This document shows positions 35,387-43,136 of a stretch of DNA of 43,136 nt, one piece after another. How positions within the stretch are numbered: position 1 is the stretch's first letter; every line of letters starts with the position of its first letter. The DNA lies in the IMG/VR virus record IMGVR_UViG_3300029286_003722, positions 1 to 43,136 of that record. One strand, given 5' to 3'. The translations under genes and the position numbers were made by a program. This stretch comes from a virus (taxonomy: Duplodnaviria; Caudoviricetes). The notes under the pieces were generated by a model, which worked only from the letters and a program-made list of their open reading frames with translations, was not told the DNA's origin and made no database searches.

Positions 35387-36342
35387 TATCGCGCTCCCTT
35401 GAGAGAGGCTTCGGCCCTCTCGATGACGTTCTGCGCCTGAGCCCATGTAAGGTTGGCCTCGGCAGATTTGACCAGGTACTGGCTCGCATAGCCGGTCATC
35501 TGGGTGGACAGCTCAATCAGTCTTGCTTTCTGGGTGGAGGTCATTGGTTCGTTTCCATCTTGGACATCCCCAGTCGGCACAAGATCAGGTTGTCTCTCGG
35601 GTTCTCCTGTGGACAGATTGCTCTGTGTCACAGGACTGTCCTTCAGTGTCAGGGGAGCCATGGAGGACATGAGATCAGCCCAGCCTGTGGTCTCTCCGAT
35701 CTCCACGGTCGGGGGTATGCGTCCGGTGCGGTCTTTGGAATCGAAGGATCCCCCCTGGGTTGGGGTGTACAATATCCGGGAGATCCCGTTGTCCCTTTTT
35801 TGGATTCCCAGATAGCTGATGACATCCACCATGTTGGGGATCTCATCGGAGAGTTTTGTCGCCACCTGGATGCGGTGTTCCAGTCCCTGATCCGTGGCGA
35901 TCTCAGCCACATGGGAGACGATGATGACGTTCTTTCCAGTATCCCGGAGGAATTTGATGAAGGAGCGCATCTGCTTTTTGACTTCGCCCCAACCTGCCAT
36001 GGTGAGGCCTCCATCGGAGGTGCGGAACTTGGCACCTTTGATCTCATCCGAGTCGATGAGCTTCTCCATCGCCTCCCCCAGTGGATCTAGCACGATGGTC
36101 TCATGGGTCTTCAGCATCTGCCTAAGATCAGTCTTGTCGGCTCCTGTCAGCCAGTGCGCCATGCGTACGACATCGCACTGGAATCCCCGCTCCCCCAGGT
36201 ATTTGGTCCCATTCTCAAAATCAAGGATCAGCGGAGACGGAGAAGATGCCGCGAAAGTAGTCTTGCCAACTCCGCCTTTCCCGTATACAATCATGACGAG
36301 GTTGTCCGTTGTCTTGATGTCTCCTGTGTTCTCTATGATCAT
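35386..36342 (-). CDS. Sak4-like AAA_24 single-strand annealing ATPase
   Basis: YGKGGVGKTT, LDFENG, TIVLD, IIVSH and KDRTG motifs. Adjacent to exonuclease and SSB. Confidence 0.88.
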   Translation of the reverse strand: MIIENTGDIKTTDNLVMIVYGKGGVGKTTFAASSPSPLILDFENGTKYLGERGFQCDVVRMAHWLTGADKTDLRQMLKTHETIVLDPLGEAMEKLIDSDEIKGAKFRTSDGGLTMAGWGEVKKQMRSFIKFLRDTGKNVIIVSHVAEIATDQGLEHRIQVATKLSDEIPNMVDVISYLGIQKRDNGISRILYTPTQGGSFDSKDRTGRIPPTVEIGETTGWADLMSSMAPLTLKDSPVTQSNLSTGEPERQPDLVPTGDVQDGNEPMTSTQKARLIELSTQMTGYASQYLVKSAEANLTWAQAQNVIERAEASLKGAR

Positions 36343-36710
36343 TTGGACACCTCACCACCCACCGAGTCGGATGCGTCATCATCCGGCTTGTTTTTTTTCT
36401 GGAGCGACATCTTGGGGAGTCCCGGTCCTGGCAAAGATCCGATCCACCATTGGTAGTATTCATCCCGGCTCTTAATCGCTTCCCTCAACTGGGATTCCAA
36501 ACTACAGACCTCATAAGCTTTCGCTTCGAAGTCCCCAGTTAGTTTCTCTTTTTCCTCCTCAAGATCCTCAATGCGCATGCGGGCCTCATTGAGCTCATCG
36601 CGGATCTCCAGCTCCCTGTCGGACATCTCCTGCTTAGCCTGCAGGATGACGCCCATAGCCTGTCCAGCAAAATCTGCCAGCATGCTCTTCGCCAACTCGT
36701 CACTCTTCAT
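36339..36710 (-). CDS. Hypothetical coiled-coil protein (123 aa)
   Basis: AAGGAGG RBS before ATG 36710. The longer ORF-track start runs through a tRNA-like element. Confidence 0.7.
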   Translation of the reverse strand: MKSDELAKSMLADFAGQAMGVILQAKQEMSDRELEIRDELNEARMRIEDLEEEKEKLTGDFEAKAYEVCSLESQLREAIKSRDEYYQWWIGSLPGPGLPKMSLQKKNKPDDDASDSVGGEVSK

Positions 36711-36747
36711 GGTGACCTCCTTGAAATTGTTTTCCGTTTTACGGGTA

Positions 36748-36832
36748 TGGGACCGAAACCGAATCGAACGCATGTTCTTCCAGATCTCTTTGACTACCGA
36801 TCTGGACGTGCTAGCCATTGCACCACGGTCCC
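36748..36832 (-). ncRNA. tRNA-like element C (85 nt; extended non-canonical anticodon arm)
   Basis: GGGACCG/CGGTCCC+A acceptor. D-arm GTGC-AATGGCTA-GCAC. 8-bp stem TCCAGATC/GATCTGGA with 12-nt loop. TTCGATT T-loop on an imperfect stem. Confidence 0.75.
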
Positions 36833-36839
36833 GAGAGAA

Positions 36840-37082
36840 TCACGTGTTTCCACGCAGATATTCGCTAAACCGCTGTTCCCTGAGTGCCTGGATCTGGGAA
36901 ACACCCAAGCCCCGGCGATCCTGTTTTGGGATGTGGAAGTAATAGGAGCTCTGAGAGTAGATCCTGTTTGCCAGGGCCTTCTTCTAACTCACCCCGCGGA
37001 TCCTCGGTGCAGAGGCTTTCGTCGGTACCTGGCCCCTGCTCCAATTCAAAAACATCAGCAACCTTTGGAAATTGTTCGTCAT
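36840..37082 (-). pseudogene. 80-codon ORF interrupted by an in-frame TAG at codon 33
   Basis: AAGGAG RBS, ATG at 37082, TAG at 36984-36986. The frame stays open to TGA 36840-36842, ending just before the tRNA-like element. Confidence 0.5.
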
Positions 37083-37127
37083 GCCTGTTCTCCTTCTTCT
37101 CGTTTACTTGGTAACACCTGGAATCAG

Positions 37128-37490
37128 TCAAACCAGGTGTGTGCCTTCCACGTTCCTGGCCTCTCTATCAAGAGTCCGCTTCCGCAGCCACATCACAGCC
37201 TCCTCGAGTTTGGTGAGAGCAAGGGCATTCTCACGACAGGCGTAAGGACTGTTCTGGAACTGCTGGAGTCGGGTGATCACCATGAGCAATAGGTCCTCAT
37301 TGGCAACACCGTTCACGCCACATTCTTTGATGGGACCCTTCTGGAACTTCACAACTTGCGTAAAGGCAACCTCTGTGGTTGGGATCTCCACAGGCTGTAC
37401 GGTAAACGTGTTGTATGCATTGAAATCGAAATCGTCTCCGGAAACCTCTGTATACTTGCTCGTGAACAGCGCATTCTTGATTTTTTCCAT
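37128..37490 (-). CDS. tad1: Tad1-family (Thoeris anti-defence) nucleotide-signal sponge
   Basis: KFQKGPIKECGVNGV.NEDLL..V..RL..FQ.SPYACRENALALTKLEEA.MWL.KRT.DRE.RNVEGT matches the conserved Tad1 core as I recall it. Confidence 0.85.
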   Translation of the reverse strand: MEKIKNALFTSKYTEVSGDDFDFNAYNTFTVQPVEIPTTEVAFTQVVKFQKGPIKECGVNGVANEDLLLMVITRLQQFQNSPYACRENALALTKLEEAVMWLRKRTLDREARNVEGTHLV

Positions 37491-37516
37491 ACATTATCCT
37501 TTGCCCTTTGGCTGAT

Positions 37517-37589
37517 TGGGACTGGCAGGAATCGAACCTGCACTCTGGTGGTTGTCCAGTCACGCGACTACCAATTCCGCCACAGTCCC
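37517..37589 (-). ncRNA. tRNA-like element B (73 nt; no canonical anticodon arm)
   Basis: GGGACTG/CAGTCCC+A acceptor. Leu-like D-arm GCGGAATTGGTAGTCGC. Perfect T-arm GCAGG-TTCGATT-CCTGC. Central arm is only CTGG-ACAACCA-CCAG and out of register. Confidence 0.8.
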
Positions 37590-37740
37590 GATTCACCACG
37601 AGTGCTGTCGTGGCCACAGATCCCCGGCTTTTTCGCTGGTCTCCCGGTAGCCCACCGGTCAATGGGGGTTGATGCGCCCCTGCCAGACTCGCTTACTATT
37701 TCAGACCTTTTTTTTACGCCACCCATACGGGCCGACGTTT
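37590..37740 (-). ncRNA. Structured non-coding spacer (several hairpins)
   Basis: Stems ACGTCGGCCC/GGGTGGCGT and CCACGA/TCGTGG. GGGG/CCCC and CCGGT/ACCGG hairpins are enclosed by CTGG/CCAG. No convincing ORF. Confidence 0.45.
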
Positions 37741-37802
37741 TAAATGAAGTGGGAATTGCACCCACACAGATGGATGGATCCACCTGTCGGCTTTGTTCAT
37801 CT
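37741..37802 (-). ncRNA. Mini tRNA-like element A (62 nt)
   Basis: AGATGAA/TTCATTT+A closing stem, unpaired 8-nt linker, 9-bp hairpin and T-arm-like GTGGG-TGCAATT-CCCAC. Confidence 0.5.
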
Positions 37803-37804
37803 CT

Positions 37805-38155
37805 TTACCGTTTGGATTTAGATTCCGCGACAAAACGCTTTCTCTCCGCTTCTAGATGCTCATGCCACATCTCAATTCTTTTTTTAGGATCGATAGATCG
37901 CCAGGATAGGTATTCTTCAAGAGGCCATCGGATGGATCCTGCCGGAAAAGCAGACTGTCCAAATCTTGGAAGAAGATAGGCTTCTGTTTGGTATAGTTGC
38001 CGAGAAGAGACGTTTTCCATTTTTGCCACATCCTTCACCCGAACTATCTTGGGAAGACAGTTGCTATCGGCATAAAGCTGGATCAGCGCTCTCACTTCGC
38101 CTAATTCCTTTCTAAGTTGCTGAAAATCCTCTTTGGTTGCGATTTCAACACTCAC
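37805..38155 (-). CDS. Excisionase/AlpA-like HTH protein
   Basis: IVRVKDVAKMENVSSRQLY...LP......IRW..EE...W winged-HTH pattern. GTG start with GGAGGAG RBS. Confidence 0.65.
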   Translation of the reverse strand: MSVEIATKEDFQQLRKELGEVRALIQLYADSNCLPKIVRVKDVAKMENVSSRQLYQTEAYLLPRFGQSAFPAGSIRWPLEEYLSWRSIDPKKRIEMWHEHLEAERKRFVAESKSKR

Positions 38156-38251
38156 CTTTTCTCCTCCCTTGATTTTTCTATGGACCCCTCCTCCACCTGT
38201 GGTATGATTGATCTCTCAACATCTATCAGCCACAAGGCGAAGGAGGCAGAA

Positions 38252-38473
38252 ATGCCTAGTAATATGAGTGGGATGCCGTGCTTTGATGATGCGGTGCATA
38301 CACCAATGACATGCCCGTTCTGTAAGAAACCCCTGAAATTCGAACTGTTCCCAGAGGAACAAGTTCCCACAACAATCAATGACATCGCCATTACAGGGAC
38401 TCTTCTCTTCTGTTCAAATCCTGAGTGCCGGAAATTGCTTGGGATAGTGGAGAGCAAGATATCTGAACATTAG
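38252..38473 (+). CDS. Small zinc-ribbon protein antisense to the early operon (73 aa)
   Basis: AAGGAGG RBS at 38240-38246. CPFC...CSNPEC motif. Extended -10 TGnTATGAT at 38200-38208. Confidence 0.7.
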   Translation: MPSNMSGMPCFDDAVHTPMTCPFCKKPLKFELFPEEQVPTTINDIAITGTLLFCSNPECRKLLGIVESKISEH

Positions 38474-38717
38474 GTCTTCCAGGTTCCGCATACCGGAATA
38501 CAATCCTGATATCGTTAACCTGCAATCCTATGGAAGTGAAAGCATCGATGATTCCTTTGTAGACAGATCCTCCTTCGTTCGTTGTATTCATCAGGAAGTC
38601 TAGATTTTCTCCGGCACTCGGAATCAGAGCATCTCCAGCGTAAATCTGGAATCCACAAGGTTTGATAGCCTCGTTCAGCCCTGCGTATCTTTGAGCCATT
38701 AATTCTACGTATCTCAT
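38391..38717 (-). CDS. Hypothetical early protein (108 aa)
   Basis: AAGGAG RBS at 38725-38730 and ATG at 38717. Its 3' end overlaps the antisense zinc-ribbon gene. Confidence 0.55.
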   Translation of the reverse strand: MRYVELMAQRYAGLNEAIKPCGFQIYAGDALIPSAGENLDFLMNTTNEGGSVYKGIIDAFTSIGLQVNDIRIVFRYAEPGRPNVQISCSPLSQAISGTQDLNRREESL

Positions 38718-38721
38718 ATCT

Positions 38722-38961
38722 CTACTCCTTAGACGTAAAAGAGGCGCCCTCCCCCTGTGACTGATCACGGGGAGAAGACGCCTCTTGTTTTAATGATGAA
38801 AGGACTGACTGGGCTTTCTCGACAATCGCCCGGCGATAGAACTCGGTCTTCCTGAGTCCTAATATCTGACAAGCACTTGATATTTCTTTGCGATCCTCAG
38901 TTGAGAATGGCGATACCCATATCTGTTTCTTGTCTACCGTTGTATACCTTGACTGTTCCAT
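38722..38961 (-). CDS. Cro-position regulator, ribbon-helix-helix-like (79 aa)
   Basis: First gene of the lytic operon. Beta-strand QIWV, then helices EDRKEISSACQILG and KTEFYRRAI. Apparently leaderless. Confidence 0.65.
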   Translation of the reverse strand: MEQSRYTTVDKKQIWVSPFSTEDRKEISSACQILGLRKTEFYRRAIVEKAQSVLSSLKQEASSPRDQSQGEGASFTSKE

Positions 38962-39032
38962 GCAGTCATTATTGTCTACGATTGGAGTAATGTCAAGATA
39001 AATACATCTTTTTTTATCGACAAATGTAGACA
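38931..39032. promoter_or_regulatory. Three operators, consensus TGTCTAC-N4-GTAGACA, at 42-bp spacing
   Basis: 38931 TGTCTAC-CGTT-GTATACC; 38973 TGTCTAC-GATT-GGAGTAA; 39015 TATCGAC-AAAT-GTAGACA. Confidence 0.75.
38968..38996 (-). promoter_or_regulatory. Early lytic promoter
   Basis: TTGACA-17 bp-AATAAT, 6 nt upstream of ATG 38961. Confidence 0.7.
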
Positions 39033-39045
39033 CGTTACGTATACT
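39017..39045 (+). promoter_or_regulatory. Repressor maintenance promoter
   Basis: TCGACA-17 bp-TATACT, 6 nt upstream of ATG 39052. Confidence 0.75.
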
Positions 39046-39051
39046 GTTACC

Positions 39052-39426
39052 ATGAAAATTGATGCTGAGAAATTCTGGGCTCGTTTTGACGAACTCAAGG
39101 ATAAAAGTGGACGTACTATCCTAAAACTCTGTGAGTTGGATCCTGATCTTGTCTACAGGACAATCACCCAACAGCGAACAAGAAGAATCACCCCCAGCAT
39201 TGAGGTGATCGCTTCTTTTTCTAGAGTATTCAACGTCTCAATTGATTTCCTCGTCACCGGTGCGGATCCCAAACCTGCACCGAGGATCATGACCACCTTC
39301 ACCGAGAGCAAAACCCTCATGAGTATCGCCCATGCACTGGCAAAGGCCGATCAGCGACAGATCGATGCCGTGCAACTCATCCTGGGTGTTCCCCCAAGAG
39401 AGGAGTCAAGTAAAGTCCTTGCGTGA
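39052..39426 (+). CDS. XRE-family HTH prophage repressor (no S24 peptidase domain)
   Basis: PSIEVIASFSRVFNVSIDFLVTG HTH signature. Divergent from the lytic operon. Confidence 0.88.
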   Translation: MKIDAEKFWARFDELKDKSGRTILKLCELDPDLVYRTITQQRTRRITPSIEVIASFSRVFNVSIDFLVTGADPKPAPRIMTTFTESKTLMSIAHALAKADQRQIDAVQLILGVPPREESSKVLA

Positions 39427-39742: not shown

Positions 39743-40027
39743 GTTCTTCAGGATGGAGATTTATCTATGCTCTATGTAGTATGAGAGGAGCCTTCGCAAC
39801 AATGATAAATCAAATATCCGTTGGTTTTGGCATTGATATTAAAGATAATTTAGCTAATATTTTATCACTTGAAAAACCGGGAGAAATAAAACTGTAAATT
39901 CCATGTGAGGCTAGATATTGAGGACCTGTCCAACAGAAAATAATAACCTATTACTATAACTTTCTTGGCTTATAATTGGGATGTATCTTTCTCAACAATA
40001 AAGGTGTACAACATTTTAGGAAATAAA

Positions 40028-41287
40028 ATGACAATTAACCATATATACAACGCAGATTCGAGAAGCATTTCTGAAGTGTTAAACTGTGGAGAAGTGGTCA
40101 ATACAACCATTACATCTCCTCCGTATTTTGATATGAAAGATTATGGAAGTGAAAACCAAATCGGTTTTGGTCAAGAATATGAAGAATACCTTGAGGACCT
40201 GAAATTAGTTTTCCAAAATATTTATAATATTACAAAGGAAGATGGATCCCTGTGGATTGTAATAGATACTTTTAAAAAAGAGAAAAGCGTTGTACCTCTC
40301 CCCTTTGATCTGGTATCAAAATTAATAGGTATAGGATGGAAATTAAAAGATATCATCATTTGGAAAAAAGATAAAACCGTTCCTTGGTCTACAAAGGGTT
40401 TTGTACAAAGAAAGTTTGAATACATCCTTTTTTTTTCCAAGACAGATAATTTCAAATACAATATTGACCGGGTACGAGCGTACGATACATCCCATTTAAA
40501 AAGATGGTGGGTTAAATATCCTGAAAGATATAATCCTAAAGGTAAAGCTATAGATGAAGTCTGGGAATATCCAATCCCAACTCAAGGATCGTGGGGAAAT
40601 AAATATATACGACATTTTTGTCCTCTTCCAATTGAGATGGTGGGGAACATGATTCAACTAACAACAGATGAAGGTGATTTAGTGTTGGATCCATTTTCTG
40701 GAAGTGGCTCTGTTCCAGCACAAGCATGTTTTATGAAACGTAATTATGTTGGGTTCGAGTTAAATAAATCTTACATTGATATGTTTGAGGATTATATTAA
40801 TAACTCATTTACTGTTGAAAGAAAAAAATATAATTTGTTGTGTGAAAATGATGATCAGTCTCAATTTGAGATCACAATAATGGAATTGAGATGTTTAAAA
40901 TATGCCAGACTATTAAGAAATTATATTAAAAAATCCATAGACATTAGTAACATTATAATTTTTACTGAATTCGTAAGAAAGATTGAAGAATCCAATAAAA
41001 TCATTGATGCAAATTTTATAGTTTGTTGCGATCATAATGAAACAATATTAAAACCAATCATCGACCAAGTCGTAAAAAGACCTCCATTATCGAAATTTGG
41101 CATCAAACCGTCAATTTTCTTTCACGAACCAATAAATAAAGATTTTATGTCTGGAAAAGAAATGTTTGGCTATACCTCTACAAATTCTCATTCAACTTTT
41201 GGAGAGGTAAATTATGAAGATTTAGATAAACGATGTGCGGTAATTTCTCCTATTAAAATGATGATCAATGAAAATGATTATAATTAA
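40028..41287 (+). CDS. Beta-class N4-C/N6-A DNA methyltransferase with C-terminal extension
   Basis: Catalytic TSPPY (40112-40126) precedes SAM-binding DPFSGSG (40688). IIWKK and HFCP motifs. About 150 extra C-terminal residues. ATG at 40028 with AGGA RBS. Confidence 0.92.
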   Translation: MTINHIYNADSRSISEVLNCGEVVNTTITSPPYFDMKDYGSENQIGFGQEYEEYLEDLKLVFQNIYNITKEDGSLWIVIDTFKKEKSVVPLPFDLVSKLIGIGWKLKDIIIWKKDKTVPWSTKGFVQRKFEYILFFSKTDNFKYNIDRVRAYDTSHLKRWWVKYPERYNPKGKAIDEVWEYPIPTQGSWGNKYIRHFCPLPIEMVGNMIQLTTDEGDLVLDPFSGSGSVPAQACFMKRNYVGFELNKSYIDMFEDYINNSFTVERKKYNLLCENDDQSQFEITIMELRCLKYARLLRNYIKKSIDISNIIIFTEFVRKIEESNKIIDANFIVCCDHNETILKPIIDQVVKRPPLSKFGIKPSIFFHEPINKDFMSGKEMFGYTSTNSHSTFGEVNYEDLDKRCAVISPIKMMINENDYN

Positions 41288-41297
41288 AGGATAACAA

Positions 41298-43136
41298 ATG
41301 ACCAAAAAAATCAAAAGGAATAAAAAGCGTGTATTGACTCCTGACCAAAAAAAAGATAAAGAGAAAAAAGACTATATCAAATTAGTTCAACATATTCTTC
41401 TTTCGATGGGATTTAAGAGAATCAAAGATGTTTCAGATAAAAACTTTTTCTATAAAGAAAGACAAACAGAATTGGATGATATTTTTATTTTAGAAAATTT
41501 AATTATCTTTACAGAATATACTAGTAGAAAAGATCCAGAAGCTCATTTGAAAAATAAAAATTTTATTTATGATAGAATTATAAAAAATAAAAGGGATTTT
41601 TTAACATTTTTAACAACTGAAAATACTTTTCCTGAACTTTCAGAATTAGTTAAAAGTATTGATTGTAAATTTCAAGTCACTCAGTTTCAACTTTCAATAT
41701 TATACTGTTCTAGATATAAGGTTGAAGATGAATATAAAAAAATAATGGTTGATGGCATTAAATATTTTGACTTTCCAGTTGTTAAATATTTTGAGTCATT
41801 AGTAAATGTTATTAAAAAAACTGCAATATTTGATTTTTTAGATTTTTTATCAATTGAGTCCAAACAATTTGGTGATAATATTTTTAAAGCAGCATCATAT
41901 AGTAGTAGCAGTTATGAAGCACAAATATTACCAGAAGATCGTAGTTTATTTTCAAGAGGACAAAAAATTATTTCATTCTATATTGATGCTCAATCTTTAT
42001 TAAAGAGAGCTTATGTACTTCGAAGAGATGGATGGAAAAATTGCGAGAATATTGGCCATTACCAAAGAATGCTAGTCACAAAAAAAATTAATAGTATGAG
42101 GAAATATTTATCTGAAAAAGAAAGGGTTTTTGTCAACAATATTATTACCACAATTTCGACAAAGGATATTAGTTTACTTGATAAAGATGACAATGAGATA
42201 AAATTAAAACCAAATGGTGAATATGAAGAAGGAAATCAAAATAATCTTCCAGTTAAAGTACAAATTCCAGACAAACCAAATATTATTGGGATCATTGATG
42301 GACAACACAGAACCTATTCATATTATGAAGGCAGTGATATATATGAGCCTAAAATTGCTAAATTTAGAAGAGCTCATAATTTATTAATCACTACAATACT
42401 ATCCCCTATAACTTGGAATGATGATCAAAGAATAAAATTCGAGGCTGATCTTTTTATGGAGATAAACTCAAATCAGACTAGTGCGGAAGGACTTCTTAAA
42501 CAAGAGATTGAATTAATTATTCATCCATACTCACCCATTGCTATTGCTAAGCGAGTTCTAAATATTTTAAAATCAGATGGTCCACTATCAGGATTACTTG
42601 AGAATTATTGGTATGACTATAATTCAATAAAAACAACTACAATCGTAAGTTATGGTTTAAAGCCTCTAACAAGACTTGATAGTAGTGATAGCATATTCAC
42701 TGTTTGGGATCATCCTGAAAAAAATAAGATAGAAGGAACTAAAGATACTGAAACTAGCGCATTGCTCGATTTATATATTAAGTTTGCTGCAAAAACAATT
42801 AATAATATTCTCTCGGGATATGAAATCAACCTCTCTACTAAGGAATATACATTGTGGAGATTAAGTAAGAATTTTCCTGATGGGATTTTATCTGTTTCTT
42901 CAGTCATTGGGATGTTTAATTCCTTGCGACTTCTAATTAGAAACGAGAAACACGTATATAATTTTGATAAATATAAGGAAATTTTTAAGGATGTGTATGA
43001 TTTTAAATTTAAAGACTACAAATCTAGTCAATATATGAAAATGGGGGAAGCTCTACATAAAAGATTTTTTACAAATCAAACTCCAAGTAATGATGATGCA
43101 AATAAAGTTCTTGATAACCCGACAATATTAACTTAA
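41298..43136 (+). CDS. DGQHR (DndB/ParB-Srx-like) domain protein with N-terminal restriction-endonuclease-like region
   Basis: YQRML, IIDGQHR (DGQHR at 42297-42311) and LFMEINSNQ motifs. N-terminal ELDDIF...IIFTEYT resembles PD-(D/E)XK. Starts 10 bp after the MTase. Confidence 0.85.
   Translation: MTKKIKRNKKRVLTPDQKKDKEKKDYIKLVQHILLSMGFKRIKDVSDKNFFYKERQTELDDIFILENLIIFTEYTSRKDPEAHLKNKNFIYDRIIKNKRDFLTFLTTENTFPELSELVKSIDCKFQVTQFQLSILYCSRYKVEDEYKKIMVDGIKYFDFPVVKYFESLVNVIKKTAIFDFLDFLSIESKQFGDNIFKAASYSSSSYEAQILPEDRSLFSRGQKIISFYIDAQSLLKRAYVLRRDGWKNCENIGHYQRMLVTKKINSMRKYLSEKERVFVNNIITTISTKDISLLDKDDNEIKLKPNGEYEEGNQNNLPVKVQIPDKPNIIGIIDGQHRTYSYYEGSDIYEPKIAKFRRAHNLLITTILSPITWNDDQRIKFEADLFMEINSNQTSAEGLLKQEIELIIHPYSPIAIAKRVLNILKSDGPLSGLLENYWYDYNSIKTTTIVSYGLKPLTRLDSSDSIFTVWDHPEKNKIEGTKDTETSALLDLYIKFAAKTINNILSGYEINLSTKEYTLWRLSKNFPDGILSVSSVIGMFNSLRLLIRNEKHVYNFDKYKEIFKDVYDFKFKDYKSSQYMKMGEALHKRFFTNQTPSNDDANKVLDNPTILT

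Follow-up and report, generated by a model that had tools for sequence, protein, structure and literature searches.

tRNA-like RNA elements between early genes of a tad1-carrying phage: candidate RNase P and RNase Z cut marks

The window analysed here is a viral record of 43,136 nt. Its genes for head, tail, replication and recombination lie on the minus strand, and a repressor gene diverges from them; from this layout we infer a phage of the temperate type. Its Sak4-like gene has relatives in eight genome loci, six of which are labelled Spirochaetaceae, Sphaerochaetaceae or Pleomorphochaeta, so that the likely hosts are spirochaete bacteria. A promoter-like site (Table 1) is the likely source of the transcript of an island about 1.2 kb downstream, situated between a 116-aa ORF, for which we found neither a family match nor a real relative, and a conserved coiled-coil gene. 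The stretch 36018-39088 has an identical copy in a 151-kb metagenome contig (L131), which may come from the same sample. The early operon is interrupted by a small antisense gene (38117-38473, plus strand), which has a promoter-like site to itself; a related phage locus (L099) shares DNA around the start of this gene. Elsewhere in the window, 39965-43136 (plus strand) encodes a DNA methylase (PF01555) followed, at the contig end, by a DndB-like protein, possibly a defence or modification locus.

Table 1. Coordinates of the early island and its surroundings.
Feature	Coordinates	Strand	Description
Repressor gene	39052-39426		divergent from early genes
Promoter-like site	38968-38996	-	11/12; divergent from repressor gene; consensus match only
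116-aa ORF	37805..38155	-	opens island; slot occupied in relatives by an HTH_17 (excisionase-like) gene
Element A	37741..37802	-	7-bp acceptor, 9-bp hairpin, T arm, A73; no D arm
Three-way-junction RNA module	37635..37689	-	CAUUGA ... hairpin ... GAGA; not tRNA-like
Hairpin	37596..37613	-	ends 6 nt before +1 of B
Element B	37517..37589	-	tRNA-Leu-type body, non-canonical middle hairpin; member of RGGACYG phage family
Small hairpin	37503..37512	-	4 nt past B's discriminator, before tad1 ribosome-binding site
tad1	37128..37490	-	Thoeris anti-defence 1 sponge family, 120 aa; PF24729 above cut-off
32-codon ORF	36984..37082	-	strong SD; TAG at 36986
Element C	36748..36832	-	acceptor, D arm, 8-bp hairpin with 12-nt loop, degenerate T arm, A73
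Coiled-coil gene	36339..36710	-	conserved, 123 aa; closes island, ahead of Sak4-like gene

The island includes an anti-defence gene, tad1, whose identity, proposed in an earlier note on this DNA, is upheld by the PF24729 match and by full-length similarity to PDB 8KBB (residues 12-130 of 8KBB, E 1.3e-37); by these matches tad1 is a genuine member of its family. The small ORF that the same note described as bracketed together with tad1 is present, and is corrected here to a frame of 32 codons. Past its TAG the frame runs on to 80 codons, ending at a TGA 7 nt before element C, and it is possibly a broken 80-aa gene; no homologue was found for it, read-through frame included. Amber suppression of this ORF was considered and is unsupported, as the read-through is without homologue and no element has a CUA anticodon. 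The hairpin upstream of element B is predicted to protect the upstream 3' end, and the small hairpin downstream of B is found as the same module in another phage locus (L001). The three-way-junction module is common to six relatives (L099, L102, L103, L121, L123, L124), where it follows the excisionase-like gene; CAUUGA and GAGA are invariant, the stems compensate, and Rfam holds no match to it. This module, more constant in these phages than the tRNA-like elements, could be an antitermination or protein-binding site. In two other loci (L111:2640-3210 and L112:2600-3210), about 600 gene-free nucleotides before an early gene contain modules shared with the island. A pattern search for the upstream module matched two loci, both already in the set.

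Three tRNA-like elements (A, B and C) lie in gaps of the early operon where the earlier note had placed them, all intergenic and all on the minus strand, as are the early genes. Element A (MFE z -2.78) has a 5-bp T stem, the loop UGCAAUU and an unpaired A; lacking a D arm, it has a three-stem shape and not that of a cloverleaf. Among 239 loci it has no homologue except the identical copy in L131. Its T arm plus U-rich tail was also flagged as terminator-like. Element A begins 2 nt past the stop codon of the upstream ORF (37741-37807 for both together), and a ribosome standing there could obstruct the acceptor stem, so that folding would be coupled to translation.

Element B (z -2.54) matches the Rfam tRNA model (RF00005) at 44.6 bits, against a gathering threshold of 29, and is the only ARAGORN call in the window ('tRNA-???', anticodon unassigned), the kind of call that had been expected. 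In the canonical register, two of the five anticodon-stem pairs form and U33 is absent; a 4-bp hairpin with the loop ACAACCA lies 3 nt off the anticodon-arm register, and there is no long variable arm. The MFE structure of B is a rod, from which forcing the acceptor and T arm costs 1.3 kcal/mol and the full cloverleaf 5.2 (for 65 canonical tRNAs, the 75th percentile is 0.5 and the 90th 1.7).

In element C (z -3.37) the acceptor, a 4-bp D arm and the 8-bp hairpin fold well, but the T stem requires a 3-nt bulge and is not predicted to form (pair probability 0.01). C ends 37 nt ahead of the next start and overlaps a 5' extension of the mechanical ORF, whose SD-led start is at 36710. B and C have ends in common; the homologue search with C returned only one, unrelated, tRNA-Gly-like match.

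In short, B has a tRNA-Leu-type body, A has no D arm, and the T arm of C is broken. Of the features of a decoding tRNA, the 7-bp acceptor, 5-bp T stem, T loop and unpaired discriminator A are present in A and B, and in C in bulged form only; none has a 5-bp anticodon stem with a 7-nt loop, U33 and purine 37, and the earlier statement that no element has a valid anticodon arm is borne out. The absence of an encoded CCA (0/3) is also correct, but not distinctive: the proxy host genome (G001) has 47 tRNAs, with an encoded CCA in none of the 14 read, so that its absence is what one would expect of tRNAs in the likely host. Scanning for an acceptor combined with a T arm, with a clause admitting C that was added after C had been seen, gave three matches in the window and one in 40 dinucleotide shuffles (0.025 expected per window); a stricter scan retained A and B only, with no match in 955 kb of shuffled sequence. 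Neither Rfam nor ARAGORN gave a match to tmRNA or to bacterial Y RNA. A, B and C are real, non-random RNA elements and, judging by comparative anatomy, probably functional.

An IMG/VR scan with the 3' half of B yielded 44 loci. Some contain canonical tRNAs, some tRNAs of large phages that probably bear introns, and some elements that do not decode. We hand-picked a 'B family' of 12 non-decoding members with an RGGACYG acceptor, one of them from a metagenome scan; the family counts omit duplicates and the long-insert elements of L062, L075 and L083 (probable intron-bearing tRNAs). Positions 1-15 of the family are 0.88 identical, though outside the search pattern. U8 and A14 are present in all 12 members, the D-loop GG and A73 in 11 each, and the 15:48 pair is kept throughout (A:U in 10, G:C in 2). 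The middles, by contrast, range from 18 to 103 nt, are no more similar to one another than shuffles are (0.746 vs 0.745), and reach a fold z below -2 in one member of 12, and a tRNA frame kept around unrelated middles is not explained by random decay. A 20-row alignment, which has a gap column at one T-stem pair and is out of line in the T arm of three rows, shows two-sided changes at all seven acceptor pairs, a covariation that is partly built in because the elements were chosen by a pairing scan. The combination named beforehand as contrary evidence, ordinary anticodon arms in homologues and no covariation, was absent.

The proxy host's tRNA-Leu(CAG) has a D arm that matches that of B at all but one base, and from this near-match the B family probably descends from a tRNA-Leu; in L074 and L130 the middles still resemble the anticodon and variable arms of tRNA-Leu. 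A search of 258 host-family genomes for the B-family body, limited to exact matches with a gap of 30-60, found it in none, which speaks against a fresh copy from the host. Searches of cultured phages returned matches to tad1 only and none to the elements. Two identical 77-nt B-family copies lie 222 nt apart in L074 (1449-1525 and 1671-1747).

Further phages carry elements with unrelated acceptor sequences and the same fold, including minimal forms of 42-48 nt that consist of acceptor, linker and T arm only, without a D arm. Among four loci these minimal forms covary, with a switch between UUCGA and UGCAA, the loop form of A. A curated set of 29 elements, from which mis-parsed and canonical rows were dropped by hand and which includes C and three elements of L102, has A73 in 25 and an encoded CCA in none (it is encoded by 15 of 52 canonical tRNAs from phages and metagenomes). 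The 40 nt past the discriminator fold more stably than shuffles (mean z -1.21, n=29) when compared with those of canonical tRNAs (-0.25, n=54) or random sites (-0.26, n=174), and an SD-led ORF begins within 50 nt downstream of 12 of the 29 elements vs 25 of 174 random sites; the p-values obtained here (~3e-4) are overstated, since the loci are related. Upstream flanks fold as canonical tRNA flanks do (z -1.01 vs -1.04). Immediately downstream of other elements one finds, among others, a MazG-like gene and one for a dNTP diphosphohydrolase; ten of 12 downstream genes tested had no PHROG match. ARAGORN labelled some of the elements Pro, Cys or His. In the sequences compared, the common denominator of the elements is the top half of a tRNA (acceptor plus T arm). 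In four loci with a Tad1 nearly identical to PDB 8KBB (L162, L168, L171, L193), minimal elements of 42-45 nt lie upstream, two each in L162, L168 and L171, with variable genes between them and tad1.

Six relatives with the same early gene order were inspected. One of them (L102) carries three elements in this slot, while its 14-kb record lacks tad1, and two more records without a tad1 match contain one and three elements. In the five other relatives (L099, L103, L121, L123, L124), scans found no element in the slot; with five of six relatives lacking it, the element is dispensable. By this comparison the island is built, mosaic-like, from RNA modules that can be exchanged, of which the tRNA-like ones are optional. 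Among close tad1 homologues, the sole element of the record adjoins tad1 in L001, L002 and L004, and the records of L003 and L005 contain none; an 8-nt T-loop clause was added to this discovery scan after L002 had been seen. In L001, the combination of tad1, a B-like element and the hairpin recurs at another position.

A coupling specific to tad1, which looked strong in this discovery set, found no support in another 77 tad1 loci: 65 are free of elements within 2 kb, seven have elements in tad1-flanking gaps and five in other gaps, an adjacency that is not significant with the crude gene calls used (p 0.06 by length, 0.11 by gap count). With one locus per 85% cluster the counts are 4 vs 4 (p 0.23 and 0.28). 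In Sak4 neighbourhoods, nine matches were found in 142 kb over 17 of 29 Sak4 loci, a density like that near tad1. Matches lie on the sense strand in 18 of 19 cases near tad1 and in all nine near Sak4 genes. The tRNA-like elements are not, on these counts, specific to tad1, and in related phages stand beside many other genes; a trend toward tad1 adjacency is possible.

The best explanation, to which we give slightly less than an even chance, is that the elements are cut marks for RNase P and RNase Z that would punctuate the early transcript in the manner of mitochondrial t-elements. RNase P and RNase Z, like the CCA enzyme, recognise the top half of a tRNA, and the proxy host has both RNase P RNA and RNase Z. 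Cutting at both ends is suggested by the frequency of A73, the lack of CCA, the folding trailer and SD-led ORFs downstream, and the presence of both enzymes in the proxy host. The elements share with t-elements and mascRNA a top half without a decoding arm, the sense orientation and a location at gene borders. The early transcript would start from the promoter-like site, RNase P would cut at +1 and RNase Z after A73, and separate mRNA pieces would be freed, each with a separately set stability. The freed tad1 mRNA would begin about 26 nt before its ATG, behind the small hairpin, and the excised pieces, once given a CCA end, would remain as small RNAs. Of the three, B probably makes the best substrate, and C may be a weakened or decaying element. 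As precedents, the available parts of PMC1920247 and PMC4919922 describe, respectively, plant mitochondrial t-elements and mascRNA as processing signals, the latter with RNase P and RNase Z acting on non-tRNA substrates. The earlier note had proposed processing signals that release and stabilise the tad1 mRNA; a processing signal fits what is seen, namely relatives that keep the acceptor/T-arm top half and the discriminator, and a likely host family that has both enzymes, but the part specific to tad1 does not stand, given elements without tad1 and a prospective adjacency that is not significant. The lack of an element in five relatives, the T arm of C and the copies that L080 has inside a genuine tRNA cluster count against cut marks. 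Since cutting needs only the top half, the B family, with its D arm, its Levitt pair and its long middles, also has more than cut marks would explain.

This surplus bears on another reading, possible if rather unlikely, in which the released RNAs are themselves the product: stable, tRNA-shaped and trans-acting, as a scaffold for an exchangeable middle domain, a leucylated non-decoding RNA or a sink for toxins of the acceptor end. The B family retains the whole L-shape core, with a D arm in B nearly that of host tRNA-Leu(CAG). In the accessible portion of PMC2377443, LeuRS needs A73 and the U8-A14, G18-U55 and G19-C56 core, not the anticodon arm, and these are present in B and in 11-12 of the 12 family members; by the same account leucylation needs a correctly oriented variable arm, and B is without the long one. 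Some defence toxins act on the acceptor end. One is the toxSAS FaRel2, which probes the acceptor stem and has a link to immunity against phages (10.1101/2024.07.05.602228, in the section available); AbiE-type nucleotidyltransferases are other candidates. The neighbouring genes (tad1, MazG-like, dNTP diphosphohydrolase) are in keeping with such a role, whereas the unrelated middles, which mostly fold no better than shuffles, the variation of acceptor sequences between lineages, and the missing D arm of A and of the minimal forms are not. A fuller version, which we think unlikely, would have a conserved Leu-type frame, holding an insert of 18-103 nt that can be swapped, be released by RNase P and RNase Z, receive a CCA tail and act as the RNA arm of the anti-defence island beside Tad1, soaking up acceptor-end toxins or displaying cargo RNAs. 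It is distinctly improbable that the elements are decaying tRNA genes, mostly tRNA-Leu, riding without function in an accessory island: the broken T arm of C, which adjoins a possibly broken ORF, the Leu-like middles of L074 and L130 and the patchy presence among relatives would suit decay, but change is limited to the middle while stems compensate, the host-family genomes offer no source for a fresh copy, and perfect minimal forms are hard to reach randomly.

Three further readings carry little weight with us. If the conserved ends were homology blocks at the DNA level that shuffle accessory cassettes such as tad1, the shared ends of B and C, the identical copies in L074, the recombination of flanking modules between phages and the recurrent cassette of L001 would be accounted for; we regard this as very unlikely, since compensatory changes preserve pairing and not sequence, lineages with unrelated acceptors keep the same fold, and orientation is strictly sense. 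Antisense immunity RNAs of the C4/CI type, with loops pairing to targets in the same operon, would also be expected in an early operon, and the middles of A and C give borderline pairing with the early region (4/60 and 3/60 target shuffles as good). For B, however, 10/60 are as good, the result is not significant over three tests, no Rfam C4-family match was found, and the best sites lie within coding sequences 2-5 kb away and require the elements' own stems to open; we regard this reading, too, as very unlikely. Least probable of all is the earlier suggestion of decoys for anticodon nucleases (PrrC, PARIS AriB, retron PtuAB, OLD). A genuine anti-defence gene adjoins the elements, and in three other phage records the sole element lies beside tad1; yet the part that these enzymes cut is missing or unconstrained here, adjacency in the prospective set fell short of significance, and in the part of PMC12445682 available, toxicity of PtuAB, AriB and OLD is rescued by tRNAs with the matching anticodon, which the elements do not have.

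Processing signals of tRNA-like form are already known, and mRNA punctuation by tRNA is familiar from mitochondria and MALAT1; what appears new, no print description having been found, is the setting in phage early operons. Our literature search, mostly of the main text of open-access papers, found no description of anticodon-less tRNA-bodied elements there. The t-elements (PMC1920247) and mascRNA/menRNA (PMC4919922), as far as the accessible passages describe them, resemble A-C in having a T arm and acceptor and no usable anticodon, and lie at mRNA ends, cut by RNase P and RNase Z, where here cut marks are predicted; they differ from the present elements, which occupy bacteriophage early operons and, in the B family, enclose an exchangeable 18-103-nt middle. 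B shares with bacterial tRNA-Leu the 7/5 stems, Leu-type D arm, A15:U48, G18G19, T loop and A73 but, without a canonical anticodon stem, U33 or long variable arm, cannot decode. P4 CI is a small structured phage RNA of the early region. The P1/P7 C4 RNAs are likewise small structured RNAs from the early region of temperate phages, as here, and the C4 precursor is an RNase P substrate (PMC4919922, in the portion available); unlike C4 and CI, the present elements lack an Rfam match of this kind and a convincing cis antisense target, and have a true tRNA T loop.

T4 RNA C/D and the T5 stable RNAs are tRNA-like phage RNAs of unknown function. The elements, likened to them by description, occur one at a time in a small temperate phage, each in a gap between protein-coding genes. 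Closer to T4 and T5 in arrangement is L080, a 147-kb phage record in which three B-family 5' bodies, one truncated and two with different middles, lie inside an ordinary tRNA cluster (480-1950). Allo-tRNAs and irregular tRNA polycistrons are non-canonical genes in mobile contexts, some proposed to be non-coding, and allo-tRNAs have 8/4 or 9/3 stems and anticodons (PMC5389517, the part consulted), whereas A and B have 7/5 stems and none. For viruses, five tRNA-overlapping candidates are named without a function in the available text of PMC10690425.

Cut marks of this kind, if confirmed, would add to phage gene control a layer driven by host enzymes, recurring and unannotated; tRNA finders miss or mislabel such elements. 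Were the released RNAs to act in trans, they would constitute a new RNA-based counter-defence. Among the loci set aside from the family, L062 (1501-1612, 2084-2205) and L083 (201-318, 1176-1299, 1408-1525) contain tRNA genes with anticodon-arm inserts of about 40-50 nt, which have a CAGCAA motif in common and look like intron-bearing tRNA-Lys, Cys and Gly.
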